Shown: positions 11,744 through 25,682, counted from the first letter of the stretch. The stretch: DNA of 64,000 bases from a bacterium (GCA_963674965.2 CAXXFL010000001.1:352001-416000), one strand, 5' to 3'. A program made the numbers and translations. Notes: generated from the letters alone by a model not told the origin.

Positions 11744-12751
11744 TTATCGGGAAGGCCGGGGAGGGGCGGGTTTTCGGCAGGCGGCGCTCATGCGTTTTTG
11801 CCACTTGGGCTTTCCCCTGAAAACCAGGTAGGCCTTGATATAGAGGGCGACGTCGCTCTGATTGAAGTCGGGGCCGTTGAGCATGACCTTGACGTTCTGG
11901 GCCGACCTCCTGAAATTGGGGGTCCGCCAGGGGAAGGCGAAGTCGAAATCGAGGAAATAAAACTTCCAGCCGTCCTTTAAATTCTCGATCATGGCGTTCT
12001 TCTCGAGGTCGTGCGTGTAGAAGCCATGGCGGTGAAGGGCCGCCGCGGCGTGGGCCAGGGCGATGATAAAGGTCCTCCTTTCCTCCTCGCCGAGTTGGCC
12101 GAGCCAGTTAACGTAGGCCTGGTAATCCAGGACCGCTCCTCCCAGCTCCTCCATGAAAAGGACCGCCCGGACCGGCGCGCCAAGCCGCGACTCCACGAGC
12201 AGGGCGACCGGCACGGTCACGTTAAAGCCCTTGTCCTTGAGGTAGAGAAGGTTGATGAAGTTTCTTTCCGGCTCGAGGCGGAGCAGATATTTCTCGACGC
12301 CCCGATATATCTCCTTGCCGGAAAAGTCGTAGTACTTGGCCAGGCATTTGCCGCGGCCGGTCTCGAGACGGGCGGCGGAGATGATTTTCCTTTTATACGT
12401 CGCCTCGATCTCTTCCCTTACCTCCCCGCGCCCCCGCTCCTTGTCCCAGACGGAGACCAACTCGAGGACTTGATCCAGCCCGTACTCGGGGTTGATAAGG
12501 ATTCTCCTTTTATATTTCGAGCCGGGAGGGGAAGGAGCCTTGACATGGGCGTGGGACCGGAAGTGTCTCGTTTTTTCCAGGAACAGCCCCAGGCCGGTCC
12601 TCGGCTCGCCTCCGCCTTGACGCGGGGGTAAAGAATCGCGAGTCGCCAGGATAATATCGAGATTGCCGCCCATGGACTCGACCCATCGCAGGTCCGGCCG
12701 GCCCATGGTTTTTTCGTCGTGCCTTGCCATGCTCATCGACGCCGGCGCCAC
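11744..12751 (-). CDS. Lipopolysaccharide kinase (Kdo/WaaP/InaA)-like protein, paralog of the neighbouring gene
   Basis: CLAKYY, PERNFINLLYLKDKGFNVTVPVA, LHRHGFYTHDLEKN, FYFLDFDFAFPWR. Start uncertain. Confidence 0.72.
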   Translation of the reverse strand: MAPASMSMARHDEKTMGRPDLRWVESMGGNLDIILATRDSLPPRQGGGEPRTGLGLFLEKTRHFRSHAHVKAPSPPGSKYKRRILINPEYGLDQVLELVSVWDKERGRGEVREEIEATYKRKIISAARLETGRGKCLAKYYDFSGKEIYRGVEKYLLRLEPERNFINLLYLKDKGFNVTVPVALLVESRLGAPVRAVLFMEELGGAVLDYQAYVNWLGQLGEEERRTFIIALAHAAAALHRHGFYTHDLEKNAMIENLKDGWKFYFLDFDFAFPWRTPNFRRSAQNVKVMLNGPDFNQSDVALYIKAYLVFRGKPKWQKRMSAACRKPAPPRPSR

Positions 12752-12760
12752 GCTCGCGGG

Positions 12761-14578
12761 CTAGCGGACTCCCCTGGCCTCGAGCGCCCTTATCTCGGCG
12801 GCCCATTTCTCGCGCTCCTCCTCCCCCACCTCCGGGTCGGGAAGAAGCGAGCGGCGCGTGCAGTTGACGAGCGCCTGCAGGGTCTGGTAGCGGCGGGTCA
12901 AGGCTATGGCCGGCGGCAGGTGGTCGCGGATAATGTCCCCTATTACGTCCACCCCCAGCTTTTCGCCCTTGATGATCGAGTGGGCCTTGAGCTCCGAGCG
13001 AAGGGACGCGAAGTTGGCGGCCGACGTGCCCCCGATCATCTCGTCGAGCCTGGTCAGTTCCTCGTCGGTGGGCGGGTGGTCCATTACCGACTCGACCGTC
13101 CAGCGCAGGAACTCTTTTCTGTCGTCGCCCTCCGCGTCGAGTATGGGAATGATCAGGTCTCCCACCCTGCCCGGCCGCCGGATGTCGGGGGAAAGGAGCT
13201 GAATCCTGGCGGTCATCAAAAGCCAGATCACCCGGCCGCGAAGCTTGGGGTCGCTCATCATGGCCTGGATTTTTCCGGTCAGCCTTCTTTCCGTCGAGTG
13301 CGTCTCCGGTCCCACCCCTCCGAACTGGGTGTCGGCCTCATCCACGAAGATAAGCACCTTGGCCAGGGCGTCGAGCACGCGCCGGAGCCGCTCGAAGATG
13401 ACGTCGGTCTGGCCGAACCACTGGCTCCGGATGTTCTTGAGGACCAGTACCACCATGTCCAACTCGCTGGCCACGGCCTCGAAGACGAAGGTCTTGCCGC
13501 CGCCGATGGGGCCGCACACGGCCGCGCCGGGCAGGGCCTCGGCTCCCGCGGCCTTGAAGCGGGGTATCAACTCGGCGCCCAGGAACTCCTTGAGCCTGGA
13601 GAAGCCCACCACGTCGTCCAGGCAATGGCCGGGCTTTTTGAACTCGACTATGTCCTCGCCGAGCTGGCTTTGAATGTGCTCCTCCACCTTGTCCACCACG
13701 TCGGCCAGGGTCAGGTCGCGGCCCTCGTGGATGGCCCCCTTCAAGAGTTGGTTCAGCGCGTGGATCGTGAGACCCGCCGTGAATCGGGCCAGGTCGTTCT
13801 TGTCCCCCCACAGCCTCAGCTTGCGAGTCGAGGACCGGCGGCCGTCGAACCATTCGATGAACTCGAGCCGCTCCTCCTCGTCCGGCGCCGGAACGCTTAC
13901 CTCGATGACCTGGGGAAGACGGGACACCCGGTGGTTGATGAGGCTGCGCGACTCCGAGAAAAGGACCACCGCGTCGCCCCCGTCCATGAAGCCGGGGTCG
14001 GAGAACCAGTCCCGGCAGACGCTCACGCGGTGGCGGTCGGCGTCGGACAGGCTCACTATCTCTCCCTCCGGTATGACCATGTCAGCCGCCTCGATGAGGA
14101 TGATGAGGTCCTCGCTCAAAAGGGGCCGGTCGCCCAGGCGCGCTCGGGAGCAAAGGCACATCTGGCGGAGTATCTCGAGGGCAACGGTCGGGTTGCCCAC
14201 CGCGGACTTGAGGTTGGCGTCAAAGGCCTGGTTCATGGTCTCGAGCTTGGCCCGGGCCTTGTTCGAGGCCAGCATGATCTCGACGGCCAGGGCGTTGTAG
14301 TCCATGCCGCTGCGCCATTTCAGCCAGGCCTCCCTCACCTTCTCCCGGTCCTTGTCGTCGATGAAGCGGATGGGCCCGTTCAGCTCGTAGACGATGAGTA
14401 TCTTGTTCTTGACCGCCCACTGGCCGGTGAGGAAATCCACCAGGGGCGCGTAGCCGGAGTCCGGGCCCGGCTGCCGGAAAAGGTCGTGTATGTTTCCGGT
14501 CATGACGATGACCCTGGACTGTCCCGAGTTGAGGACCCTGCCGGAGATTTTCAGAAACTCGTAATCGGGCGCGCTCAT
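12761..14578 (-). CDS. AAA+ ATPase, classical clade: degenerate N-terminal AAA-like domain plus intact C-terminal AAA domain
   Basis: Walker A GPIGGGKT, pore loop SQWFGQT, Walker B IFVDEAD, Arg-finger region IRRPGRV. The first domain keeps only a Walker-B-like ILIEAAD. Confidence 0.9.
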   Translation of the reverse strand: MSAPDYEFLKISGRVLNSGQSRVIVMTGNIHDLFRQPGPDSGYAPLVDFLTGQWAVKNKILIVYELNGPIRFIDDKDREKVREAWLKWRSGMDYNALAVEIMLASNKARAKLETMNQAFDANLKSAVGNPTVALEILRQMCLCSRARLGDRPLLSEDLIILIEAADMVIPEGEIVSLSDADRHRVSVCRDWFSDPGFMDGGDAVVLFSESRSLINHRVSRLPQVIEVSVPAPDEEERLEFIEWFDGRRSSTRKLRLWGDKNDLARFTAGLTIHALNQLLKGAIHEGRDLTLADVVDKVEEHIQSQLGEDIVEFKKPGHCLDDVVGFSRLKEFLGAELIPRFKAAGAEALPGAAVCGPIGGGKTFVFEAVASELDMVVLVLKNIRSQWFGQTDVIFERLRRVLDALAKVLIFVDEADTQFGGVGPETHSTERRLTGKIQAMMSDPKLRGRVIWLLMTARIQLLSPDIRRPGRVGDLIIPILDAEGDDRKEFLRWTVESVMDHPPTDEELTRLDEMIGGTSAANFASLRSELKAHSIIKGEKLGVDVIGDIIRDHLPPAIALTRRYQTLQALVNCTRRSLLPDPEVGEEEREKWAAEIRALEARGVR

Positions 14579-15525
14579 GCCAGCACTCCTTGTCCTTTTC
14601 CTTCCTCGAGCTGTTTCCAGAAGACGGCCGACCCCTCGGGCGGCTGGAGGTTGCGGGCGTCGAAGGTCGACTCCCTAATTTCCTCGCGCTGCTTGACGAA
14701 GGTATCGAAGTTCCTCGGCTCGTCGGGACGGTAAACGGGGGCGCACCGGTCGTAGACCACCGTGGCCCCGGGCGGCTCCTCGAGCCCGGCTCCTTTCCAG
14801 TCCCAGTACTGGCTAAGGCCTACCACCCTGTCTCCCACGAAAATGGCCTCGTTAAGCTCGTGGGTGACGATGAGGACCGTGTAGGGGGGCGGCTCGTTTC
14901 TCGACCTGGCCTCGAGGTTCTCCGCGTAGAGGTTGAGGAGCAGGCGCTGGAGTTCCTCGCGGGTCGCCTCGTCCAGGGCCCCGAAGGGCTCGTCCAGAAG
15001 AAGTATCTCGGGCTTCATGATCAGCGCCTGGGCCACCGCCACCCTTTGACGCATGCCGCCCGACATCTGGGCCGGATAAAGGTCCACCGCGTCGGCCAGC
15101 TTCAGCTTCTCCAGAAAACTCGTGGCCGCGGCCAGGTGCTCCCTTCTAAGCCCGCGCCATTTCGAGAAGCCCAAAAGACGCCCCGCGACGCTGGTCTGAT
15201 CCAGCTTCAGCCCGAAGGCCACGTTTTGCCTGGCCGTGAGAAAGGGAAAAAGGGAGTACTGCTGGTACACGATGCCCCGGTCGCGTCCTGGCCCCCTGAC
15301 CGCCAGGGCCCTTTCGCTCCCCGCCTCTTTGACCTTGACGCTACCCTCACAAGGCGGGTGGGTGCCCACGATGGCGCGAAGGAGGGTCGATTTGCCGCAG
15401 CCGCTGGGACCGACCAAGGACACGATCTCGCCCCTGATTATCTGAAGGTTCACGTCGTAAAGGACCCGCTTGGGCCCGAACCAGTGGGAAACGCCGCGGC
15501 ACTCGAGGACCAGGTCGCGGTCCAT
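14575..15525 (-). CDS. ABC transporter ATP-binding protein, NitT/TauT family
   Basis: GPSGCGKST, YQQYSLFP, MSGGMRQR, LLLDEPFGALD, VTHEL. Confidence 0.93.
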   Translation of the reverse strand: MDRDLVLECRGVSHWFGPKRVLYDVNLQIIRGEIVSLVGPSGCGKSTLLRAIVGTHPPCEGSVKVKEAGSERALAVRGPGRDRGIVYQQYSLFPFLTARQNVAFGLKLDQTSVAGRLLGFSKWRGLRREHLAAATSFLEKLKLADAVDLYPAQMSGGMRQRVAVAQALIMKPEILLLDEPFGALDEATREELQRLLLNLYAENLEARSRNEPPPYTVLIVTHELNEAIFVGDRVVGLSQYWDWKGAGLEEPPGATVVYDRCAPVYRPDEPRNFDTFVKQREEIRESTFDARNLQPPEGSAVFWKQLEEGKGQGVLA

Positions 15526-15528
15526 GGC

Positions 15529-16335
15529 TCACCTTCCCTCCGGCGAGAACCAGGGGCAAAGCGCCCTTTGCGTCCTTCTCGTCAGGTAGTCCATGGAGAA
15601 GCCGAAGGCCGCCAGCAGGGCGAGGTAGGGGTAGACCACCTCCATGTTCAAAAGCTTGGACTGGAGCCGGATGCGGTAGCCGAAGCCCACGTCGCCCACC
15701 ACCATCTCGGCCGCGATAAGATAGACCATGGCCGGCCCTATTTGCAGGCGGGCCGCGTCGATGATCTTGGGCAGGATGGCGGGAAAGATGACGTTCCAGA
15801 TCAGCTCGGGCTGGGACGCGCCCAGGGTATGGGCCTTGTATAAAAGCTCGTCGGGCACCTCCTTGACGGCCAGGTAGACCGACTGGGACAGGGTGGGCAG
15901 GACCCCGAACACGATCATGGCCACGTACATTTCCGTGTCGGTTCCCACCATGACGAAGAACACGGCCAGGGCCGCCGTGGGAGGGACCTTGGCCAGGAGC
16001 GACATGGGAGGCACCAGGAAGGACTCGAAGGTCGCGTAGCACCCCATCAGGAGTCCCAGGACCACGGCCAGGACCACGCCGATGGAAAGGCCCAGGAAGA
16101 GCCGGATGGCCGTGGCCTTCGAGTCCTCGATCACCCAGCGCTCGCCGCTCCTGGAGTTGGCTAGGACCGCCTTTTTCACGCCCCCGCCCATCTGCTTCCA
16201 AGTGGGTATGGTGGTGTCGTCCGGGTTTTTCACGTGCTGTCTGTAAGATAGCATGGTGTAGAGACCAAGGAGCGCGACCACGGAAAGGGCGCTGAGCAAA
16301 AGGGCGGCGTTCCTGGAGATGGGTTGTCGGATCAT
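15529..16335 (-). CDS. ABC transporter permease, NitT/TauT (SsuC/TauC-like)
   Basis: Multiple TM helices, KVPPTA, EAA-like loop KAHTLGAS, LIAAEM...GFG. Confidence 0.92.
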   Translation of the reverse strand: MIRQPISRNAALLLSALSVVALLGLYTMLSYRQHVKNPDDTTIPTWKQMGGGVKKAVLANSRSGERWVIEDSKATAIRLFLGLSIGVVLAVVLGLLMGCYATFESFLVPPMSLLAKVPPTAALAVFFVMVGTDTEMYVAMIVFGVLPTLSQSVYLAVKEVPDELLYKAHTLGASQPELIWNVIFPAILPKIIDAARLQIGPAMVYLIAAEMVVGDVGFGYRIRLQSKLLNMEVVYPYLALLAAFGFSMDYLTRRTQRALCPWFSPEGR

Positions 16336-16415
16336 ATGATTTTCCCATGGATACGGGGCGGACGCGACGACCGCCGCGCCTCGCCCCTTATTAGTACGTT
16401 AACGATCGGCCGGGC

Positions 16416-17501
16416 TTACTTGCTCGCGGCCTGGTAGGCCTTGACGTAAGCCGGGTCGAGCCTGAAGTTGGCGTCGGCGGCCGCGGCCTTGTCGCCGTAG
16501 CCGACCTTGGGGGCCTTGTCCACGATCTCGTGGTCCACGCAGAACTTGACGACCTTTTCCATGATCCCCTTGGTGGCGTCGTCGGTGAGGACCTTGGTCC
16601 CCTCCTCGGGGGTCGAGTAGAAGCGGGTCTGCTCGACCACCTTCTTCATGGCCTCGAGGTCTAGGTGGGAGAACTTCTCGCCCAGGGCCACGAGGGTCTC
16701 GTCCCGCGTCTTCTCGTCCTTCATCCTCTGGTTGACCTGGTAGAAGGCGTCGATCACGGCGTGGGCGAACTTGTCGCCGCCGGGCTTATCAAGCGACTCC
16801 TGGGACATGACCACCATGTCGATGATCTCGCCGGGTATCTTGGTCGAGTCGAAAAGGACCTTGGCGTCCTTTCTTTTATTCAGGGTCTCGAGCACGAACG
16901 GGTTCCACACCACGATGGCCTCGTAGCCCTCGTGTCCCTGCTGCATGGCCAGGGCGGCCGCGCCCGGGTCCATGTTGGTGAACTTGTAGTCGGCCTCCTT
17001 CTCGCCCAGAAGCTCGAGGTTCCGAACGAAGCAGTACTCGGAGACCGTCTTGGCCAGGCCGTAGACGGGCTTGCCTTTTAGCTGCTTCACGTCGGTCACG
17101 CCGCCGGCCACGATGAGGGCGTCGGCCCCGAAGCTGGTCGAGGTGGGCAGGATGCCGACCGACTTGATGGTCAGGCTGGGGTTTAAAGCGTCCATGTTGG
17201 TGATGCACACGGCGTCCACGTTGCCCGAGCCGTACATCTGGAGGCACGGGTCGTACTCGGCCTCCTTAAGCTCGACGTCCACGCCCCACTTCTTTTCCAC
17301 CGGGCCGAGCTTTCCCTTCTTGCCGTCGATGATCCCGTACTCGTGGGCCACGCCAAAGGCGCTCCATGACGGGTACTCGCTCCAGGCCAAAGAGAAAGTG
17401 GGAACGTCCTCAGCCTCGGCCGTGCCCGCTATCCATACCATCGGGCTGATCGCCAAAACAACCAGGGCGATCCCCAACGCATTCTTCCTTAAGTTTTTCA
17501 T
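16416..17501 (-). CDS. ABC transporter substrate-binding protein (NMT1/SsuA fold; resembles the urea-carboxylase-region SBP group)
   Basis: Signal peptide, LAWSEYPSW, TNMDAL, SFGADA, VVWNP, FDSTKIPGEIIDM. Confidence 0.85.
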   Translation of the reverse strand: MKNLRKNALGIALVVLAISPMVWIAGTAEAEDVPTFSLAWSEYPSWSAFGVAHEYGIIDGKKGKLGPVEKKWGVDVELKEAEYDPCLQMYGSGNVDAVCITNMDALNPSLTIKSVGILPTSTSFGADALIVAGGVTDVKQLKGKPVYGLAKTVSEYCFVRNLELLGEKEADYKFTNMDPGAAALAMQQGHEGYEAIVVWNPFVLETLNKRKDAKVLFDSTKIPGEIIDMVVMSQESLDKPGGDKFAHAVIDAFYQVNQRMKDEKTRDETLVALGEKFSHLDLEAMKKVVEQTRFYSTPEEGTKVLTDDATKGIMEKVVKFCVDHEIVDKAPKVGYGDKAAAADANFRLDPAYVKAYQAASK

Positions 17502-17544
17502 CTCTTCCCTCCTCTCGGTTGAATATAAGTCTACTTCTTGTCCC

Positions 17545-18372
17545 TTACTCGGGCAGGGATTCCTTCTTGTCCGAGGCGGGCGCGGCCTTGGCCGCCGCGT
17601 CGGTCTCTCCCGCCAGTCCCACCAGGGCGTCGAACTCGGAGGTCGAGGCCGAGGTCCTGGCGTACTCGAGGAACTCCGCCTCCTGGACCTTGGCGTCCGT
17701 GCCCGCCAGCTCCTTGGATATCCTGGCCTCGGCCTTGACCTCCTGCCGAAGCTCGCGCATCCTTTGAAGCTCCTTTTCCGCGCCGTCCTCCGCGATGCCC
17801 GCGAAGGCGTCGGCGATCTCCTTCTCCTGCTTGGCCGTGATCATGTCCGCCACCGCGTCGTGGGCCTCGGCCTTGATATTGTCTATGTCGCGAGCCAGGC
17901 TCTGGAGCTGGACCTTGTGCTCGCCTATCCTTTTTCCGTACTCGGCCACGTCCCGCTCGAGCTCGTCGATCCGGGCCTGCTTCTCGGCCAGGGTCGAGCT
18001 GAAGTCGTTATAGGCGGCCAGGCACTTCATGTAATCCTCGTTGGTCTGGATTTCCTCCTTGGATTTTCCCTCGCCCTGAAGGCGGGCCACCTCCTGCTTG
18101 GCCTTGGCCAGGGCCCCGGCCCGAAGGCGCTCGAGCTTCTCGACCTCCTCGGTCAGCCCCTTGACCTTGGCGATCTTGTTCTCCTGCTGGGCAATAAGAC
18201 CCGCCACCGCCTGCTTGTACTGCTGGATGCGGGCGGTCTTGTCGCGTATGACCTCGTCGTACTTGGCCCGCATCACGTGGGGGTTGGTATCCAGGGTGCG
18301 CCTGGCCGCGTCTATCTGGCCGGTCATCAGATACCCCAGCGCCTTAAACCATCTTCCCAAGGCTCCAAACAT
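17545..18372 (-). CDS. PspA/IM30/Vipp1 family (ESCRT-III superfamily) coiled-coil protein
   Basis: Amphipathic N-terminal helix MFGALGRWFKALGYL, then DTNPHVM (compare PspA EDPxxM), long helical hairpin, C-terminal EAEFLEYA...SEFDAL helix. AAAGGAGG RBS. Confidence 0.8.
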   Translation of the reverse strand: MFGALGRWFKALGYLMTGQIDAARRTLDTNPHVMRAKYDEVIRDKTARIQQYKQAVAGLIAQQENKIAKVKGLTEEVEKLERLRAGALAKAKQEVARLQGEGKSKEEIQTNEDYMKCLAAYNDFSSTLAEKQARIDELERDVAEYGKRIGEHKVQLQSLARDIDNIKAEAHDAVADMITAKQEKEIADAFAGIAEDGAEKELQRMRELRQEVKAEARISKELAGTDAKVQEAEFLEYARTSASTSEFDALVGLAGETDAAAKAAPASDKKESLPE

Positions 18373-18452
18373 GGCCCATAGTCCTCCTTTATCTTTATCG
18401 CTTACGTCTTAAAAAATAACTCCCCCCGCCTCGAGGGCCTCGCGGCGGGCTT

Positions 18453-19247
18453 CTATAGCTCCCTGGTTCCCAGTTCCTCGTCCAGGCGCTTCATCCTTTC
18501 CGCCACCGACCTGGCCACCTCGAGGCCCCGGTCGAGCTCCTCGCGGACGCGGGCCAGCTCCGACGCCTGGGAGTCGCTTCCCGCGGTCACGCTCTGGATG
18601 CCCGCCAGGATTTTCCCGAGCTGCTTGATGCTCTCTCCCACGTCGGCGATGATCCGCTCCCTCTGCTGGAGAATCGGTTGTTGCGCGTCCCTGGTGGCCA
18701 TGGTCCTGGCCGTGTTCCAGAGCTGGAGCGTCTTCTCGAGGGACTTGACGCAGCTTCCGAAAAGCTCCTCCACCCGGGAGTTAATGCCCATGGCGGTGAA
18801 GGAATCGACCCCCGCGGACCAGTCCCGGCTCGAGTCGAAGGCCTTGGTCAGGGCCCGAAGATCACGCAGGCTCCACTCGGTGCGGGGGTCCCCGTCGGCC
18901 GCCAGCCGCCGGTCCAGGTCGTCGAGGGCCCGCTCGCGCTCGGCCTGAGCCTCGGCCTCGAGCTCGTGGACCACCTTCTTGCCCAGGTCCTCCTTGCTCA
19001 CGAAAAAGCGCGTGGCCGTTACGCCAACGGCCGCCAGTATGGCCGCGACGCCGGCGAACATGGCCGGTCCCGAGTTCAGGTCGAAGGTCCAAAGGGCCAG
19101 GAGGTCCGTGATTCCCGCCAGGGCCGGGACCAGCGTCCAGGGACTGGCGAAGAGCCTCATGAGCATCTTGCGCCGGAAGGTCGTCCGGTCCAGCGCCTTC
19201 TTCGACACGGCCCCCGCCGCGAGTATGTCCTTGTCTTTGCCCATCAC
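18453..19247 (-). CDS. Hypothetical protein: two N-terminal TM helices plus a cytoplasmic coiled-coil/helical domain
   Basis: Hydrophobic segments at about residues 33-55 and 62-81, then heptad-rich helices; inside the operon, immediately upstream of the PspA-like gene. Confidence 0.8.
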   Translation of the reverse strand: MMGKDKDILAAGAVSKKALDRTTFRRKMLMRLFASPWTLVPALAGITDLLALWTFDLNSGPAMFAGVAAILAAVGVTATRFFVSKEDLGKKVVHELEAEAQAERERALDDLDRRLAADGDPRTEWSLRDLRALTKAFDSSRDWSAGVDSFTAMGINSRVEELFGSCVKSLEKTLQLWNTARTMATRDAQQPILQQRERIIADVGESIKQLGKILAGIQSVTAGSDSQASELARVREELDRGLEVARSVAERMKRLDEELGTREL

Positions 19248-19351
19248 TGAATTATAGCCGACAATTCTCCATCCGGCAGTCGGCTTCGAAAAAGACCGAT
19301 CGTCTTACAATACTCCGACGGCCTCTTTTTGTCTGGCCATCGCGTCATTTT

Positions 19352-19547
19352 TCCCCCGCCAGGGGGATGACATGAATAGCCGTAGGCTTCCAGCCTACGG
19401 GAAAGCGTCCGAATTATCCGCGGCCCTGAAGGGGCCGGACCAAAAAACTTCTCGACAAGTTCGCCCCTTCCAGGGGCGCGTAACTTTGGGGCAAGCCTTC
19501 CGTAGGCCAACGGCCTACGGCTATTCATGTCAACCCCCTCCGGGGGA
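19352..19547. repeat. REPIN/BIME-like nested palindromic element
   Basis: Perfect 20-bp IR TGACATGAATAGCCGTAGGC (19368-19387) / GCCTACGGCTATTCATGTCA (19513-19532), plus three mirrored pairs of small hairpins. Confidence 0.8.
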
Positions 19548-19632
19548 CGGCGGCGGCGACAATGATATAAATCTTGCCATCTCCTCGGCGCGACGTAAAT
19601 GCCAACGCGCCTCAAATCAGCCGACCCTAGCC

Positions 19633-21204
19633 CTAGTACGCGGGCTGCTTGAGCTCGAAGGACACCGACTGGTGGGCGCCGTTGCCGCCCCTGGGCTTGG
19701 CCGCCTCGGCCCTTACCCGGTTGGGGTCCACTCCCGCCGACAAAAGGTAATTGAGGGCCTCCTGGGCCCTCTCCCGGGCCAGCGCCAGGTTGGCGTCGGC
19801 GTCTCCCTCGCTCCGGGCGTGGCCCACCACCAGCAGGTAGTATTGCGGCCACGACTCGAGCTTCCGAGCCAGGTTGTCCATGTCCCGCCGGCTCTGGACG
19901 TTAATGCGGGCCGTTCCCCTGGCGAAGCTGATGGGCTCGATCCGAAGGCTGCCCACCGGCGACAGCTTGTTCCATTCGGCCTCGGAAAGGGGCCTCACCG
20001 CCGCCGAGGTACGGACCTCGTCCAGGTCGTCCGAGTTAAGGCCCAGCCCGTCGATCACGTCTACCTTCTTGGCGGGATGGAAGTTGGCCGCCTGAAGGCT
20101 TCTCAATACGCCGTCGTAAAAAATCGTGTTCGCCTTGCCGCCCAGCGGGTCCTGGCTCATGGCCCCGGTCTTGATAAGGACGTCGGTGATGTTGGCGATG
20201 ATATCCTCGATATGCTGGGCCTGGCCGGCCTGGTGCAGGCCGAAGTAGGCGTAGTTCTCGAGGGTGTTCTTCCACTCGATCCCCTCGACCAGCTTCCTCG
20301 CCTGCTCGTCGGTAAGGGACTCGGACCCGGTGGCCTTGGCGTCGCTTTTGACCAGGGCCTCCATGCCCCCGGTCTTGTGCTCGCTCGAGTAGGCCGAGCG
20401 GAAGTAGGCCTCGACAACGGCCCGGACCAGGTCGGGGTTGTCGCGCAGAAATGTCCTTTCCGCCACCAGCACGTCAACGATGTAGCCCTTCAGCTTGCCC
20501 GAGTCCAGAAGCAAATGGGCCCCGTCGTACTCGAGGGCCCTCGAGACGTAGGGCTCCCACATCACGTAGGCCCTTTTCGAGTTCACGTCCGAGGAGGTCA
20601 TCTTCTTGAAAACGTCGCCCGCCCCGTCGGCCTCCTCCCACCACTTGTCCGGCAGACTGGGAAGGTTGAAGTGGGCTATCACCGTCCGGGCCAAAAACTC
20701 GCTGGGCGAGTTGGGCGTGAGCACGATCCTGGCCTCGGGGTCGTCCAGGTCCTGGACGCTGGCCACGGCGTCCTTAAAGGCCACGATGGCGTCGGCGCCC
20801 TTGGTCTCGTCTATGACCATGACGATGGTGGCGGGAAACTTGCCGATCTTTTCGCCCGAGGTCAAGAAGGAGTCGATGGTAAAGACGGCCATCTGGATTT
20901 TCCTGGAGGCCAGTGCCTTCATGCGGGACTCGTAGTCAGCCGCGTCGTCCTCCACCACCAGCTTGACGCCCTGGGCCTTGAGGTCGTTCCTCATGGCGTC
21001 GCTTCGCAGCACGCAGTAGCCCGAGAAGGAGTCGGCCGCCAGGACGATCTCGTTCTTGTACTGGCTCGAGGAACTGGTCTCGTCGGTCAACTCTCCCCTC
21101 AGCCTCGGCAGGATAAGAAACTTGGTGGCCACGGCCAGGGCGGCCAGGATCACGATCCAAACCGCCGCCGCCGCCAGTATGCCCTTGACGCTTTTTCCGG
21201 CCAT
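19633..21204 (-). CDS. Membrane-anchored NMT1-type substrate-binding protein fused to a C-terminal OmpA-like domain
   Basis: N-terminal TM helix; ADSFSGY, DETKGADAIV, WEPYVS, IVDVLV (PBP2 fold); C-terminal VVGHA...ANLALARERAQ...YLLSAGVDPNRV (OmpA-like). Confidence 0.87.
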   Translation of the reverse strand: MAGKSVKGILAAAAVWIVILAALAVATKFLILPRLRGELTDETSSSSQYKNEIVLAADSFSGYCVLRSDAMRNDLKAQGVKLVVEDDAADYESRMKALASRKIQMAVFTIDSFLTSGEKIGKFPATIVMVIDETKGADAIVAFKDAVASVQDLDDPEARIVLTPNSPSEFLARTVIAHFNLPSLPDKWWEEADGAGDVFKKMTSSDVNSKRAYVMWEPYVSRALEYDGAHLLLDSGKLKGYIVDVLVAERTFLRDNPDLVRAVVEAYFRSAYSSEHKTGGMEALVKSDAKATGSESLTDEQARKLVEGIEWKNTLENYAYFGLHQAGQAQHIEDIIANITDVLIKTGAMSQDPLGGKANTIFYDGVLRSLQAANFHPAKKVDVIDGLGLNSDDLDEVRTSAAVRPLSEAEWNKLSPVGSLRIEPISFARGTARINVQSRRDMDNLARKLESWPQYYLLVVGHARSEGDADANLALARERAQEALNYLLSAGVDPNRVRAEAAKPRGGNGAHQSVSFELKQPAY

Positions 21205-21207
21205 GCC

Positions 21208-22206
21208 TCAGCTCCTCTCTTTTGGGCCGGCCTTGCTCTTTTTCCTTCTCGAGCCTACGGTCCTGGCCGCCGCGTAGACCCCGGCGAAGGCGAACAGTTG
21301 GGCATAGGAGAACATGCCGCCCAGGCATCCCTGGCCCGACCTTTTCGATCCGGAGTTTTGGGGCGGAGTCTTCCGGGCCGTATCGGCGGGGGGCGTCTCC
21401 TTTGAAGGCGGAGTTTCCGGCGGAGGCTCGGTCACGGGCTGGGGCTTGGGCGGCTTCTCGCCGATGGGATGGTTGCCGCTTTCGGTCAGGGCCTCGACCA
21501 TGGCCATGGCCATCTCGTCTGGTATTCCCTCGAGGGCGGAGAAGGCGTCCTCACTCGCCGCGTCGCTTCCAGTGCCGGCCACCTCGGCGAAGACCTCGGC
21601 CACCGCCTTTTTGAGGGAGGCCGGGTCGTCGGCGCGCCTGTAGGAGTTGACCTTGGTGGCCAGGGTATGGTTGCCGGCCATGGCCACGCCGATCACGTCC
21701 ACCGTGACGCCCCGGGCCATGACCTCGGGCGTGTATTCCTCGACCAGCCTGGTGTCCTCGGCCTCCCCGTCCGTCACGATGAGGAGGCGGTAGGAACCGT
21801 AGCCGTACTGCTTGTTCCTTTGCTCGAGCAGCTTGTCGGCGCCCTTCTTGATATACGCTCCAAGAGGGGTGCCGCCGCCGGGCAGGGGCTCGTTGATGGC
21901 GCGCTCGAGCTCCGCGTCGTGGCGGGGCCCCAGCTCGTAGGCCCAGTCGTTCTCGAGGTTCCTGGCGCTGAACACCAGAAGTCCCACGTTGACGTCGGGG
22001 GGAACGGTTTTCAGCACCTCGCGCAGGGCCGTCTTGGCCGCGTCCATTTTCTTGATCTTGGTCCCCCGCATGGTCCCGTCCATGGAACCCGAGGAATCCA
22101 GCACGATGACGACGTTGTCGGCGGCCAGGTCGTCGCCCGCTCCCGCTCCGCCGGCGGAAAGAGCCAGGGCCATAATGGCCGCCAGTATCAATCCGTTTCT
22201 TTTCAT
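21208..22206 (-). CDS. Exported vWA-domain protein with Pro-rich linker and C-terminal membrane anchor
   Basis: Signal peptide; MIDAS motif VLDSSGSM, GGTP, VTDGE; PPKPQP linker; GC-hydrophobic-RRKK tail. Confidence 0.9.
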   Translation of the reverse strand: MKRNGLILAAIMALALSAGGAGAGDDLAADNVVIVLDSSGSMDGTMRGTKIKKMDAAKTALREVLKTVPPDVNVGLLVFSARNLENDWAYELGPRHDAELERAINEPLPGGGTPLGAYIKKGADKLLEQRNKQYGYGSYRLLIVTDGEAEDTRLVEEYTPEVMARGVTVDVIGVAMAGNHTLATKVNSYRRADDPASLKKAVAEVFAEVAGTGSDAASEDAFSALEGIPDEMAMAMVEALTESGNHPIGEKPPKPQPVTEPPPETPPSKETPPADTARKTPPQNSGSKRSGQGCLGGMFSYAQLFAFAGVYAAARTVGSRRKKSKAGPKERS

Positions 22207-22225
22207 GGCCCCATCCCCCCTTGAA

Positions 22226-24067
22226 TTAAAAGTCGAAGTCGCTCGAGGAGGCGGCCTCGGCCGTCACCCGGAGAAGGCGGAACTCGACGCGCATGTTCTG
22301 CTTGGCCTCCTCCATGCTTCTGGGCTTGGCGATGAAGGGCTCCCGAATGCCCGCGCCCACGGCCTGTATCTGGCTCTTGTCCAGCCGTACGCCCTTTTTG
22401 CCCGCGTATTGGATGACCGAGTCCCTGACCGCCTCGGCCCTCTCGCGGGAGAGGTTGAGGGCGGCCTGCATGGTCTGGCGCGGGTTGACGCCCGCGGCGC
22501 CGTCGAACTCGCCCGCCTGTATCAACTCGACTATCTTGCCCGTGTCCTTGAGGTCGAGCGGCCTTCCCTTGAAGGAATACGAGTAGTTGCCCGAGCTTCC
22601 CGAGCGCTTGAGGACGCCCTTTTCCATGCCGGCGTTGACCAGGTCCAGGAGGGTCTTGGTGGGGTCCGAGTGTCCGCGGATGACGATGACGGCGTTTCCG
22701 TAGCGGTTGGCGGTCTCGACCACCCTCTGGTACTCGACTCCGTACTGGACGTCGCTGAACTCGTTCTGGTTGGGCTCGAAGTTGATGGTGAAGCTGACGA
22801 TGGTCCGGTCGTCCAGTCCCCCTCCGCTCTCGAGGGCCTCGATCTCCTTAAGGACCGCCTCGGCCCGGAAACGGTCTCCCTGCTCGACCTTGGTCTTGGT
22901 CAGGTAGCCGGTGAAGGCGGTCGAGTTATAGTCGAAATCGGGCTTGAAGAAGCCGCTTCTCACCGAGGCGTAGCCCCTGCCCGCGGCGAGGTCGAGGGCC
23001 GATTTCTGAAAGGCGTCGAATCCGGAGAGGTTGTTCTTCTGGGTGAAGAAGGCCACGTTGCCGGGGTAGCCCACCAGGGTGCAGTCCGCCAGAAGCCCGT
23101 GGGCGTCCTCCTCGAGGGTCGGTATGGTCTCCTGCCCGTAAATGTCCTGGGTCATCTTGAGGAGGGCCATGTACTCCTTGCTTCCCTTGGCCTCGTAGGC
23201 CTTCTTCAGATCGACAACCTCCTCGCTGGCCTTGAAGTAGCCGGCCACGAACTTCGAGACCAGGTCGCGGTTGGCGTCGAAAAAGTCCTTGCGGCAGGCG
23301 TACACGTCCGCTATCGAGCGCGACATCTCGGCCGTCGAGACCAGTACCCTGGCCCCCTTGACCGTGCCCTCCGCGCCGGTGCCCGCGTTCTGGAGACCGC
23401 CGGTCAGGCCGATCATGTCGGGGCTGATCACGAAGCAGGCGTCCAGGTCGTCGTTCTTCCTGAACATCTCGGCCGGCGACTTGGCGGTGCCGGTCAGGTC
23501 CTCGGCCCAGACCACGGTCACGTCGTCCCAACTCAGGCGCGCGGTCTTAAGTACGTCGTCGAACATGCCCACGTGGGGCCCGCCCTGCTGGAGGACCACT
23601 TTTTTGCCCTTCAGGTCGGCGATGGTCTTCACGCTTTTGCGGGCCACCATGTGGTCGCCGGCGGACCAGGTCATCTGCATGATAATCACGGGCTTGGTGC
23701 GGGCGTCGCTTCCGATAACCTCGCTGGCCATGCCCATCATGCGGAAGGTCCCCCTTAAAAAGGGCGTCTCGCCGGACATGTAATTCTTCACCTGTCCCAC
23801 GAAGTCGTCGCCCGCCACCAGCTTTAAGTTGAGGCCGAGATTCTGGTAGATGCTTCCCGGCTTGGTGGCAAGGCCCCCGTTGGCGTAAAAGGTCACCATG
23901 TCGCCGCCCCAGGTGATATAGGGCACGGTCAAGGGCGAGGTTTTAGTGACGTTTCCGACCTTGACCGGTCCGACCAGGTCCTTGAAGCTTTGCTCTCCCG
24001 CGGCCCGGGCGGTAAAGACCGCCGCGAAAGCCAGGATCGAGGCGGCCAACCTTATTTTCAATCTCAT
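22226..24067 (-). CDS. Exported NMT1-type substrate-binding protein fused to an OmpA-like domain carrying an insertion
   Basis: Signal peptide from ATG 24067 (GGAGG RBS); ITWGGD, TWSAGDH, IADVY; C-terminal INFEPNQ, IRGHSDP...NLSRERAEAVR...AVGAG...NMRVEF. Confidence 0.85.
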   Translation of the reverse strand: MRLKIRLAASILAFAAVFTARAAGEQSFKDLVGPVKVGNVTKTSPLTVPYITWGGDMVTFYANGGLATKPGSIYQNLGLNLKLVAGDDFVGQVKNYMSGETPFLRGTFRMMGMASEVIGSDARTKPVIIMQMTWSAGDHMVARKSVKTIADLKGKKVVLQQGGPHVGMFDDVLKTARLSWDDVTVVWAEDLTGTAKSPAEMFRKNDDLDACFVISPDMIGLTGGLQNAGTGAEGTVKGARVLVSTAEMSRSIADVYACRKDFFDANRDLVSKFVAGYFKASEEVVDLKKAYEAKGSKEYMALLKMTQDIYGQETIPTLEEDAHGLLADCTLVGYPGNVAFFTQKNNLSGFDAFQKSALDLAAGRGYASVRSGFFKPDFDYNSTAFTGYLTKTKVEQGDRFRAEAVLKEIEALESGGGLDDRTIVSFTINFEPNQNEFSDVQYGVEYQRVVETANRYGNAVIVIRGHSDPTKTLLDLVNAGMEKGVLKRSGSSGNYSYSFKGRPLDLKDTGKIVELIQAGEFDGAAGVNPRQTMQAALNLSRERAEAVRDSVIQYAGKKGVRLDKSQIQAVGAGIREPFIAKPRSMEEAKQNMRVEFRLLRVTAEAASSSDFDF

Positions 24068-24149
24068 TATAATCCTCCCTCCGCTGTATGATCGATTCGA
24101 TACTTCCCCGTGAGGCATAACTATCCCATTATGGCTTTAATTTAAGGAT

Positions 24150-24178
24150 TTTATACAACGGCGCGGCCTTGGCGTCAA
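24150..24178 (-). promoter_or_regulatory. Sigma70-type promoter for the SBP/PspA/AAA operon
   Basis: TTGACG-17 bp-TATAAA on the minus strand, about 80 bp upstream of ATG 24067. Confidence 0.55.
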
Positions 24179-24287
24179 GGTTTCGCCTTTATTCATAAAT
24201 GATGGCGGACCCGATAATTGCCGCTCCTCTTTTTATTTTTGCTTTCCCCGGGTCTTTGAATGAAAATGGTTTCGCGTCGGCGTTGAA

Positions 24288-25682
24288 ATGGATTTACTTC
24301 TTTATACCTCCGTGGACCCGTTCAGTTATCAGATCATACCGGACCTGGGTCTCATGTACGTGGCGGCGGCGGCTCGCGGCTCGGGCTTCGGCGTCGCGAT
24401 CAAGGACTGCCGCAAGGAGGGCTGGGACGCGAGACGGGCGGGTGACCACGCGGGCCGGGAGAAGCCTCTGGTGGTGGGCGTCAAGAGCTACTCGAACGAG
24501 GCCTCGCGTACCTCGGAGATGGCGGCCGAGATCAGGCGGTCCCTGCCCGGGGCGGTCATCATCATGGGCGGTCCTTATCCGTCCATGGACCCGGCGGACG
24601 TTCTGGCCCGTTCTCCGGAGGTTGATTACGCCTTTATGGGGGAGGCGGAAAAGAGCCTTCCCCTTTTTATGGAGTGGGTCAAGGCGGGCCGGGCGGGCGA
24701 GCCCCCCTCCAGCGTGGCCGGCGTGGCCTACAGAAAAGACGGGCGGACGGTCGTCCGTCCACCCGAGTTCCACCGGGACCTCGAGGACCTTCCCCTCCCG
24801 GCCTGGGACCTGATGCCTCCCGAGAAGTACCCGGACGAGGCGGCGGGCATATTCACGCCCGGCTTTCCGGCCGCCCCCATGATGCTCTCGAGGGGATGCC
24901 CCTTCCAGTGCGCCTATTGCGGCGGTCGCTACGTCATGGGTCCCCGCATCAGGTACCGGCCGGCGGCAAGCGTCATCCGGGAGATCGACCTTTTACAAAA
25001 AGAGCACGGCGTCAAGTCGGTCACCTTCGTGGACGACGGCTTCACCACCTCGAGGGAGAGGGCGATCGAGCTGTTCCAGGCCCTGGCCGGGCGCGAGCGA
25101 AAGATCGGCTTCACCTTTCCCAACGGGGTGCGGGCCGACAGCCTGGACCCGGAGATGGTGAGGCTGATGGAAAAGGCCGGCTGCTATTCCCTGGCCCTGG
25201 GGATCGAAAGCGGCTCGGACGAGACCTTGAAGCGGATGAGGAAGCGGCAGACCGTGGAGGGGGTCAGAAAGACGGTCGAGATGATAAGACGCGAGTCGTC
25301 CATACGGGTGACGGGGTTCTTCATTCTCGGCTACCCCGGCGAGAGCCTGGCCGACGTGCGGGAAACCATCAGGTTCGCCGCCGGACTGCCCATCCATCAC
25401 GCCCACTTCTGTCTTTTCATTCCCGTGCCGGGGACCCCCGTCCACGAGGAGTTGCTCGAGAAAGGCTGGATATCGGACCGCTACTGCGACCCCGAGGACC
25501 TGACCATCGACCGGGCCGGGACCGAGCTTCCCGGCCTTCCCACCCGGAAGCTCCTGCGTCTCCACCAATACGCCTACCTGCGTTTCTACTCGTCCCCCTG
25601 GCGGGCGCTGAACCTGGTCCTCCAGCTTCACGGCGGCGGCCATTTCAAGGTCATCCTTCGAAGGTTCTTAAAGCTGTTCTGA
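24288..25682 (+). CDS. Cobalamin-binding-domain radical SAM protein
   Basis: N-terminal B12-binding-like domain (PDLGLMYVAA, MGGPYPS, GEAE); SRGCPFQCAYC; GIESGS; GFFILGYPGE. Confidence 0.92.
   Translation: MDLLLYTSVDPFSYQIIPDLGLMYVAAAARGSGFGVAIKDCRKEGWDARRAGDHAGREKPLVVGVKSYSNEASRTSEMAAEIRRSLPGAVIIMGGPYPSMDPADVLARSPEVDYAFMGEAEKSLPLFMEWVKAGRAGEPPSSVAGVAYRKDGRTVVRPPEFHRDLEDLPLPAWDLMPPEKYPDEAAGIFTPGFPAAPMMLSRGCPFQCAYCGGRYVMGPRIRYRPAASVIREIDLLQKEHGVKSVTFVDDGFTTSRERAIELFQALAGRERKIGFTFPNGVRADSLDPEMVRLMEKAGCYSLALGIESGSDETLKRMRKRQTVEGVRKTVEMIRRESSIRVTGFFILGYPGESLADVRETIRFAAGLPIHHAHFCLFIPVPGTPVHEELLEKGWISDRYCDPEDLTIDRAGTELPGLPTRKLLRLHQYAYLRFYSSPWRALNLVLQLHGGGHFKVILRRFLKLF

Follow-up and report, generated by a model that had tools for sequence, protein, structure and literature searches.

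A Conserved Nine-Gene Bacterial Cassette Combining a PspA-Like Protein and a Tandem AAA+ ATPase with Wall-Tethered Binding Proteins and an ABC Importer

The window analyzed here is a 64,000-nucleotide stretch of bacterial DNA (GCA_963674965.2 CAXXFL010000001.1:352001-416000). From position 24067 down to 12761, it carries nine open reading frames (ORFs), g1 to g9, which run head to tail on the minus strand and were assigned to families with Pfam and NCBIfam. The cassette they form is real: the same nine genes, in the same order, are found in many bacterial phyla. We propose, with middling confidence, that the cassette couples an ESCRT-III/Vps4-like pair, which maintains or remodels the inner membrane, to a module for periplasmic binding and import that is anchored to the wall. 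The pair, g5 and g9, would be the first module; g1–g4 together with g6–g8 would be the second. The proposal draws on the domain identities, the topology signals, the conserved gene order and the modularity of the loci.

The cassette clearly matters to research on PspA and ESCRT-III, and the evidence comes from genomes alone, all 80 related loci being labelled as metagenome-assembled genomes (MAGs). Widespread and strongly conserved, the cassette lends itself directly to asking how ESCRT-III-type polymers of bacteria are recycled. Whether membrane remodelling can be coupled to the sensing of periplasmic ligands and to the cell wall can be tested with it too, the separable pair and the seven-gene module being natural experimental units.

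Conservation and Modularity of the Cassette

One genome per species was scanned with g5, yielding 80 loci under at least 14 phylum labels, all labelled as MAGs. Synteny was counted by tblastn of the nine window proteins against these loci, with same-strand matches of at least 30% identity accepted. Forty-six of the 80 loci are evaluable, i.e., g5 is flanked in them by at least 5.7 kb on its upstream side and 6.1 kb on its downstream side. All nine genes are present in window order in 27 of the 46, under at least eight phylum labels, and the cassette proteins are 33–76% identical to those of the window across loci. Thus, the juxtaposition of PspA-like and AAA genes with ABC (ATP-binding cassette) and solute-binding protein (SBP)–OmpA genes, first noted in a preliminary description made from the window sequence alone, is conserved. 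That description also gave the nine co-oriented genes and their families correctly, all of the ORFs being present over the whole span on the minus strand.

This shared order makes it hardly credible that a nutrient ABC operon and a PspA/AAA+ pair lie side by side by chance. The importer genes, moreover, lie between g5 and g9, and g8 overlaps g9. A 385-nt internal gap, and the ability of the two modules to exist apart, are what speaks for such a coincidence.

The other evaluable loci show how the cassette comes apart. In 12 of the 46, g5 and g9 are adjacent and are the only cassette genes present (one locus has a split g9). Four of the 46 have g1–g6 and nothing more of the cassette within 8–10 kb. 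One locus lacks g6, and another has g1–g5 and g9 followed by a different ABC set. Among the 34 loci too short to judge, 23 fit a piece of the nine-gene order and 11 appear to be pair-only. g9 is present in 50 of the 55 loci with at least 6.1 kb downstream.

A tree of g9 (57 rows: the window protein and 56 of 58 extracted orthologs, two having been dropped for length) mostly follows the phylum labels. To place loci with ABC genes and pair-only loci on this tree takes 10 changes between the two states, of which well-supported branches force at least five. One genome carries the g5–g9 pair on one contig and g1-g2-g3-g4-g6-g7-g8 on another, the latter without g5 or g9. From the state changes on the tree, this split-contig genome and the pair-only genomes, we take the g5–g9 pair and the seven envelope genes to be two units, able to separate but often travelling together. 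Since the pair occurs without the envelope genes in 12 of the 46 loci, the coupling of the two units is facultative.

This modularity bears on a transport-first explanation, according to which the cassette serves solute uptake, with the PspA-like and AAA+ proteins acting only as a chaperone, an assembly aid or a membrane protector for the ABC and wall-tethered complex rather than forming a remodelling machine of their own. We regard this explanation as a weaker contender, though the strongest of those considered besides our own. g6–g8 are a standard type-I importer set, and a binding protein stands beside the pair in three architectures. The g8–g9 distance is zero or negative in 25 of 38 loci (start codons approximate), which suggests translational coupling. 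Chaperone-like assembly roles for PspA with AAA+ partners have been proposed in the accessible part of Ravi et al. 2024 (PMC11237479). On the other side stand the loci in which the pair is alone (12 of 46) and the pair-only genomes, four of five of which, at completeness that is not known, have no g1 ortholog at E ≤1e-10. It follows that the pair's job is not only to service this transporter. In addition, g5 is conserved far beyond what the parts of a transporter would seem to need. One of the four genomes without a g1 ortholog has a weak, 33%-identical match below the threshold.

The distribution across hosts is uneven. g5 was found in 0 of 40 relatives of the window genome at E ≤1e-5, so its distribution is patchy, yet it is 57–76% identical across the 80 loci, which belong to several phyla. 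These two facts speak for a further explanation, namely a horizontally moving defence or conflict system that senses an attack on the envelope, e.g., phage entry, and responds at the membrane. A weak match of the g4 tail to ZorA (16.6 bits, PADLOC) could be added to them. We consider this explanation very improbable. PADLOC matches to the nine proteins were generic ones only, to ABC, AAA and coiled-coil models. The flanks hold ordinary genes, for Kdo-like kinases, a radical SAM enzyme and a GDSL lipase, and a scan of viral contigs gave one weak match of 53 residues and no other cassette gene.

Two further, independent architectures repeat the theme of the cassette and support our proposal. The first (L015 and L016) consists of a PspA above the Pfam cut-off, an SBP-OmpA protein, a permease, an ABC ATPase, an ORF without an assignment and an AAA+ protein; its g9-type families are only 24–30% identical to that of the window. 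The second (L040 and L045) consists of an SBP-vWA fusion, an XpaC-like protein with two transmembrane (TM) segments (PF10112), an ORF without an assignment, g5 and g9. The fusion, of SBP_bac_11 with vWA (L040:6440-8128 and L045:6337-8109), lies upstream of the XpaC-like protein and the g5–g9 pair, and it suggests that binding-protein and vWA modules act together. The XpaC-like PF10112 protein is also found in L077 and L096.

Two of the loci with cassette genes are labelled "Bathyarchaeia archaeon" (L041) and "Bifidobacteriaceae" (L054). L041 falls among Nitrospiraceae rows on the g9 tree. These labels may be binning errors rather than true hosts.

The g5–g9 Pair

g5 (17545..18372, minus strand) is read as a divergent PspA/IM30 protein of the ESCRT-III superfamily. 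A g5-family profile, made from the window protein and 35 of 79 extracted orthologs hand-picked for spread, was compared by hhalign with a profile of 11 canonical PspA proteins, all above the Pfam cut-off. The probability is 98.0 and E is 1.9e-13 over 211 columns, with g5 residues 1–250 matching PspA residues 6–221; at the tip of the hairpin, g5 is longer by about 30 residues. The canonical set is itself diverse, ten of its members being only 13–26% identical to the first. The AlphaFold2 (AF2) model of g5 (pLDDT 79.4) has helices at residues 3–16, 31–100, 112–193 and 198–240, i.e., an N-terminal helix, a long hairpin and further helices. The top Foldseek matches of this model are Vipp1 (E 1e-3 to 2e-2, 18–20% identity). 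The family profile searched against solved structures also ranks Vipp1 top, but with an E of 0.11, and the single g5 sequence matched nothing relevant among them.

g5 has no TM segment by hydropathy. Its C-terminal EFDAL..GL segment and the terminal LPE are invariant or nearly so in an alignment of 36 sequences. In a large protein collection, g5 has more than 120 clusters at 68–78% identity.

A canonical PspA is also encoded in the same genome, far from the cassette (C7:216631-217284, L105; 71.6 bits, above the cut-off). All four relatives of the same family likewise encode one.

g9 (12761..14578, minus strand) is a tandem AAA+ ATPase of 605 residues, with a degenerate N-terminal AAA domain and a C-terminal domain that is predicted to be active and to belong to the classical clade. 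Pfam scores a single AAA domain, at residues 354–473, and the nearest solved relatives of this active domain are VAT and p97 (E 2e-23). Aligned with VAT, g9 has GPIGGGKT, IFVDEAD, WFG and RRPGR, all invariant in 32 sequences, which we take to be the Walker A motif, the Walker B motif, the pore loop and the arginine fingers. The N-terminal half aligns with the C-terminal half at E 8e-5, with 195 columns in register, and has no GKT; to judge from this alignment, it is a P-loop-less AAA relic. The layout agrees with the label "inactive AAA + AAA" in the accessible part of Ravi et al. 2024 (PMC11237479). g9 is 56–71% identical in 31 orthologs, and no signal or TM segment is seen by hydropathy. A complex prediction of g9 residues 1–340 with g5 scored 0.00 in two runs and is evidence for neither side.

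The wider g9 family occurs in unrelated contexts too. A paralog that is 28–35% identical is encoded in the same genome (C1:939229-940173; L011:9852-11621), where it adjoins a 3-hydroxyacyl-CoA dehydrogenase gene and a FecR-like gene, with no PspA nearby. Stand-alone g9-type copies similar to this paralog are found in four relatives (G001, G002, G003 and G037).

g4, a Candidate Membrane Partner of g5

g4 (18453..19247, minus strand) is a TM-hairpin protein with a cytoplasmic helical bundle and no family match. The AF2 model (pLDDT 84.8) shows the hairpin and the bundle; of the two hairpin helices, one is above the hydropathy threshold and the second is seen in the AF2 model only. The protein carries a conserved motif, LDxLDRRL...DPR...LRDLR, and its gene lies directly upstream of g5 in 53 of the 74 loci with at least 900 nt upstream. 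Position and modelled topology make it a candidate membrane partner of g5. Searches for its family with Pfam, PDB profiles, Foldseek and VIA-align gave generic helical bundles only; in VIA-align, IncA and designed bundles reach Z 9–12.5, within the range expected for helical proteins. A hint from the ESM Atlas connects g4 to the Rv2743c (PspM) family with a score of 0.88, a lead that profile searching did not confirm.

Periplasmic and Transport Proteins

g1 (22226..24067, minus strand) encodes 613 residues from an ATG behind GGAGG. It is a putatively exported protein with a binding domain of the NMT1/SsuA type and a C-terminal OmpA-like domain. NMT1 is above the Pfam cut-off at 30.2 bits. The OmpA match (PF00691), aligned at residues 550–598, is below it, at 19.1 bits against 27.2, and the NCBIfam matches, SsuA_fam and YiaD OmpA, are both weak. 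Orthologs of g1 in 42 loci are 55–73% identical.

g3 (19633..21204, minus strand) has a similar plan, with an N-terminal membrane anchor, an NMT1-type binding domain and an OmpA-like domain predicted to bind peptidoglycan. Here, OmpA is above the cut-off of 27.2, at 45.1 bits, and NMT1 is just below its own (20.2 against 20.5 bits); NCBIfam gives TIGR03427 at E 8e-12. The anchor is a single N-terminal TM segment at residues 8–26 by hydropathy.

g2 (21208..22206, minus strand) is a vWA protein with a signal peptide, a low-complexity linker, a C-terminal TM anchor and a basic tail. It matches VWA (PF00092) at 49.2 bits against a cut-off of 23.8 and carries DSSGS, presumably the vWA metal-site motif. 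The order of signal, vWA domain, linker, TM segment and basic tail is kept in 41 of 43 orthologs. Since its vWA domain is in this way predicted to be periplasmic, and since g9 has neither a signal nor a TM segment, the role of AAA+ adaptor, which the preliminary description mentions for vWA proteins in general, is unlikely for g2 towards a cytoplasmic g9.

g6 (16416..17501, minus strand) is a free periplasmic binding protein of the NitT/TauT type, closest to TIGR03427 (165 bits, E 2e-48, below the cut-off of 333.9). N-termini resembling signal peptides are seen in g1, g2 and g6 and fit the export of all three. g7 (15529..16335, minus strand) is a TauC/SsuC-like permease of an ABC importer (BPD_transp_1 57.1 bits; TauC 81.5 bits, below the equivalog cut-off of 342). 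g8 (14575..15525, minus strand), whose stop overlaps the g9 start by 4 nt, is an ABC ATPase without a TM segment (ABC_tran 110 bits; best NCBIfam ATPase model 168.6 against a cut-off of 457.7). None of g6–g8 reaches a substrate-specific equivalog cut-off, so that they are placed in general families only.

The solved relatives of the binding proteins are distant: only TauA (g6, E 0.0025) and SsuA (E 0.0038) were found. The binding domains of g1, g3 and g6 are barely alignable with each other, and each is 45–76% conserved across phyla. These domains are probably old paralogs with separate roles, and the notion that three SBPs serve one permease, advanced in the preliminary description, is accordingly in doubt.

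A Proposed Mechanism

In the mechanism we propose, the N-terminal amphipathic helix of g5 would attach the protein to the inner membrane on the cytoplasmic side, where g5 would polymerize, with g4 as its membrane receptor. In g9 only the D2 ring, with its intact pore loop, would be active, and it would thread or extract g5 subunits, perhaps taking hold of them by the invariant C-terminal EFDAL..GL and LPE tail. g9 would thus turn over the g5 polymer as Vps4 does for ESCRT-III, being Vps4-like in action and not in family. On the other face of the membrane, g3, with its membrane anchor and OmpA domain, g1, free and with an OmpA-like domain, and g2, with its anchored vWA domain and metal-binding site, would together make up a scaffold in the periplasm, held by the membrane as well as by the wall. 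The binding-protein domains of the scaffold may report a periplasmic ligand, and g6–g8 would import a small solute of the NitT/TauT type.

The idea of a trans-envelope machine, already present in the preliminary description, agrees with the topology seen here and with the accessible part of Ravi et al. 2024 (PMC11237479), which infers ATP-dependent membrane remodelling linked to transport.

Points Against the Proposal

Several observations weigh against this proposal. The contacts among the proteins, the cycle of polymerization and disassembly, and the link between ligand binding and remodelling are all inferred.

For g5, the match to PF04012 (PspA_IM30) is 18.5 bits, under the gathering cut-off of 33.9, and only 13 of 36 family members match PF04012 at E ≤0.01, the best at 3.6e-5. 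In VIA-align of g5, Vipp1 (Z 11.3–11.4) is level with generic coiled coils (Z of about 11). For g4, no relation to Snf7, PspA, PspM or XpaC is detectable: hhalign probabilities stay below 2% when it is compared with the g5 family, with the L016 counterpart, with canonical PspA and with the XpaC-like neighbour, and a hidden Markov model of PspM (PF25587, Rv2743c) has no match at E ≤10. For g9, Pfam finds no MIT domain, the N-terminal half aligning to an AAA domain instead, and a Vps4/CdvC ortholog was rejected both for this reason and by score (NF041006 CdvC, 34.3 bits against a cut-off of 650). g6–g8, for their part, look like an ordinary importer.

The modularity cuts the same way. In 12 of the 46 evaluable loci the envelope genes are missing beside the pair, and four of the five pair-only genomes searched lack a g1 ortholog at the threshold given above; therefore, the pair does not need the module of g1–g4 and g6–g8. 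One of the 46 loci lacks g9. The four loci that stop after g6 (L056, L057, L058 and L075) are labelled Verrucomicrobiae, Verrucomicrobiota (two) and Pedosphaera, and unrelated genes follow in them, e.g., PSCyt/DUF1501 genes or an MFS transporter gene.

The transcription of the cassette as a unit is a further point. From g1 to g9, the intergenic distances calculated from the coordinates are 19, 3, 385, 80, 43, 80 and 3 nt, and the last two genes overlap by 4 nt. Several genes are thus spaced by 20 bp or less or overlap, as the preliminary description had it; the 385-nt gap between g3 and g4 (19248-19632) went unmentioned there. This gap holds an inserted palindromic repeat element (19352..19547; strand not assigned). 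The element is an imperfect palindrome with a predicted RNA fold of -190.8 kcal/mol (z -7.0), and blastn matches it at 43 further places spread over six contigs of the genome, mostly at 67–88% identity; it looks like a MITE-type (miniature inverted-repeat transposable element) or REP-type (repetitive extragenic palindromic) element. The median g3–g4 gap elsewhere (44 loci, start codons approximate) is about 95 nt, and the insert is therefore particular to this genome. The 385-nt gap, with its strong hairpin, could split g1–g3 from g4–g9 as two transcripts. Terminator-like sites across the region are not commoner than in shuffled sequence.

As for the start of transcription, the sigma70-like hexamers described earlier, TTGACG-17 nt-TATAAA, are present upstream of g1 and can be read directly (24150..24178, minus strand). 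A strict consensus promoter scan of 12400-24400 gave 0 sites, against 1.4 expected from shuffles. It misses this pair on account of the A with which the -10 hexamer ends. With no promoter sites in the strict scan, TTGACG-17-TATAAA is a plausible candidate promoter of g1 and is not counted as a finding.

Relation to Known Systems

The closest described relative is an operon predicted by Ravi et al. 2024 (PMC11237479, mSystems), and the guess in the preliminary description that surveys of PspA gene neighborhoods may list similar loci was well founded. In the accessible part of that paper, PspA occurs with a tandem AAA+ protein whose first domain is inactive, and longer operons add an ABC ATPase, a permease, a PBPB+OmpA protein and a TM "Snf7" (example OGG56892.1). 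A shorter form of the operon is thus already published as a prediction there. The window shares with it the PspA-type protein, the tandem AAA+ protein with a dead first domain, the ABC ATPase, the permease and the fusion of binding protein and OmpA. The order given there, PspA, PBPB-OmpA, permease, ABC, TM-Snf7 and AAA+, is found exactly in L015 and L016. The window differs in having nine genes in another order: SBP-OmpA, vWA, SBP-OmpA, two-TM protein, PspA-like, SBP, permease, ABC and AAA+. It has two SBP-OmpA proteins, a free binding protein and a periplasmic vWA protein, and its membrane-anchored g4, unlike the TM "Snf7", shows no Snf7 signal. The term "vWA" has 0 occurrences in the main text and one supplement file of Ravi et al. 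2024 (PMC11237479), and the form with three binding proteins was not found in the text searched. Searches of the literature outside subscription journals yielded no experiment on such an operon.

ESCRT-III and Vps4 of archaea and eukaryotes (CdvB/CdvC) are alike in that an ESCRT-III-superfamily gene stands beside a classical-clade AAA+ gene with a pore loop. A binding protein, ProX, is found in some archaeal Vps4/ESCRT-III loci, for which cargo sorting was suggested in the part of Makarova et al. 2024 that was available. The differences are that g9 lacks a MIT domain and carries a degenerate AAA domain in addition to the active one, that g5 is PspA-like and not Snf7-like, and that there are no ESCRT-II-type genes.

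These likenesses are the basis of a vesiculation model, in which wall-anchored binding proteins would capture cargo and a g4/g5 polymer, recycled by g9, would deform or cut the inner membrane to give vesicles or invaginations. The membership of g5 in the ESCRT-III superfamily, the dedicated classical AAA+ protein with its pore loop and the ProX of the archaeal loci are in its favour, as is the taxonomic spread, 43 of the 80 loci being labelled Verrucomicrobiota or Planctomycetota. The full cassette, on the other hand, is also found in Thermodesulfobacteriota, Acidobacteriota and others, and no ESCRT-I or ESCRT-II, MIT or MIM features were found with Pfam and NCBIfam. To our knowledge, no scission activity has been described for PspA-type proteins of the g5 family, which also counts against the model. 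We think vesiculation improbable, below the transport-first explanation and above a defence role. A broader claim is equally doubtful, namely that many bacterial phyla possess, in this cassette, a self-contained ESCRT-III/Vps4-analogous machine of polymer, receptor and unfoldase, bolted to the wall and gated by periplasmic ligand-binding domains, which actively deforms or cuts the inner membrane at captured cargo. If true, such a wall-bolted, ligand-gated machine would be a bacterial counterpart of ESCRT sorting and would go beyond passive membrane repair.

Classical Psp and Lia systems (PspA-PspBC/PspF, LiaH-LiaI and PspA-PspM) resemble the cassette in having a PspA-family gene next to a gene for a small membrane protein, a possible recruiter. 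They differ in that the AAA+ protein of the window is not an NtrC-type activator and g4 matches no known partner. PspB (PF06667) and PspC (PF04024) have no match in the whole genome, which is 97.6% complete and in which the controls were detected (PspF was not searched), so that the lack of pspB and pspC remarked on for the window extends to the genome.

The Cdc48/p97/VAT unfoldases provide the best matches of the active domain of g9 and share its two-domain layout. They differ from g9 in that its first domain has no P-loop and no N-terminal substrate domain was detected. A Cdc48/VAT ortholog was rejected (TIGR01243, 67.2 bits against 802.65; first domain without GKT). Finally, g6, g7 and g8 correspond to the binding protein, permease and ATPase families of NitT/TauT importers (TauABC and SsuABC), whereas the window has two extra binding domains, which are probably tethered to the wall via their OmpA-like domains.

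Neighboring Genes and Composition

Two paralogous Kdo/WaaP-like kinase genes (PF06293; 11744-12751 and 10765-11649, minus strand) begin 9 nt past g9 on the same strand and are possibly co-transcribed with it. By tblastn, none of the 80 related loci carries a counterpart of them, and they are therefore a local addition. Farther along the window, the segment 32001-50000 has a G+C content of 0.53–0.59, against 0.60–0.67 in the first 32 kb, and large swings in AT skew. It may be a foreign or differently composed segment.

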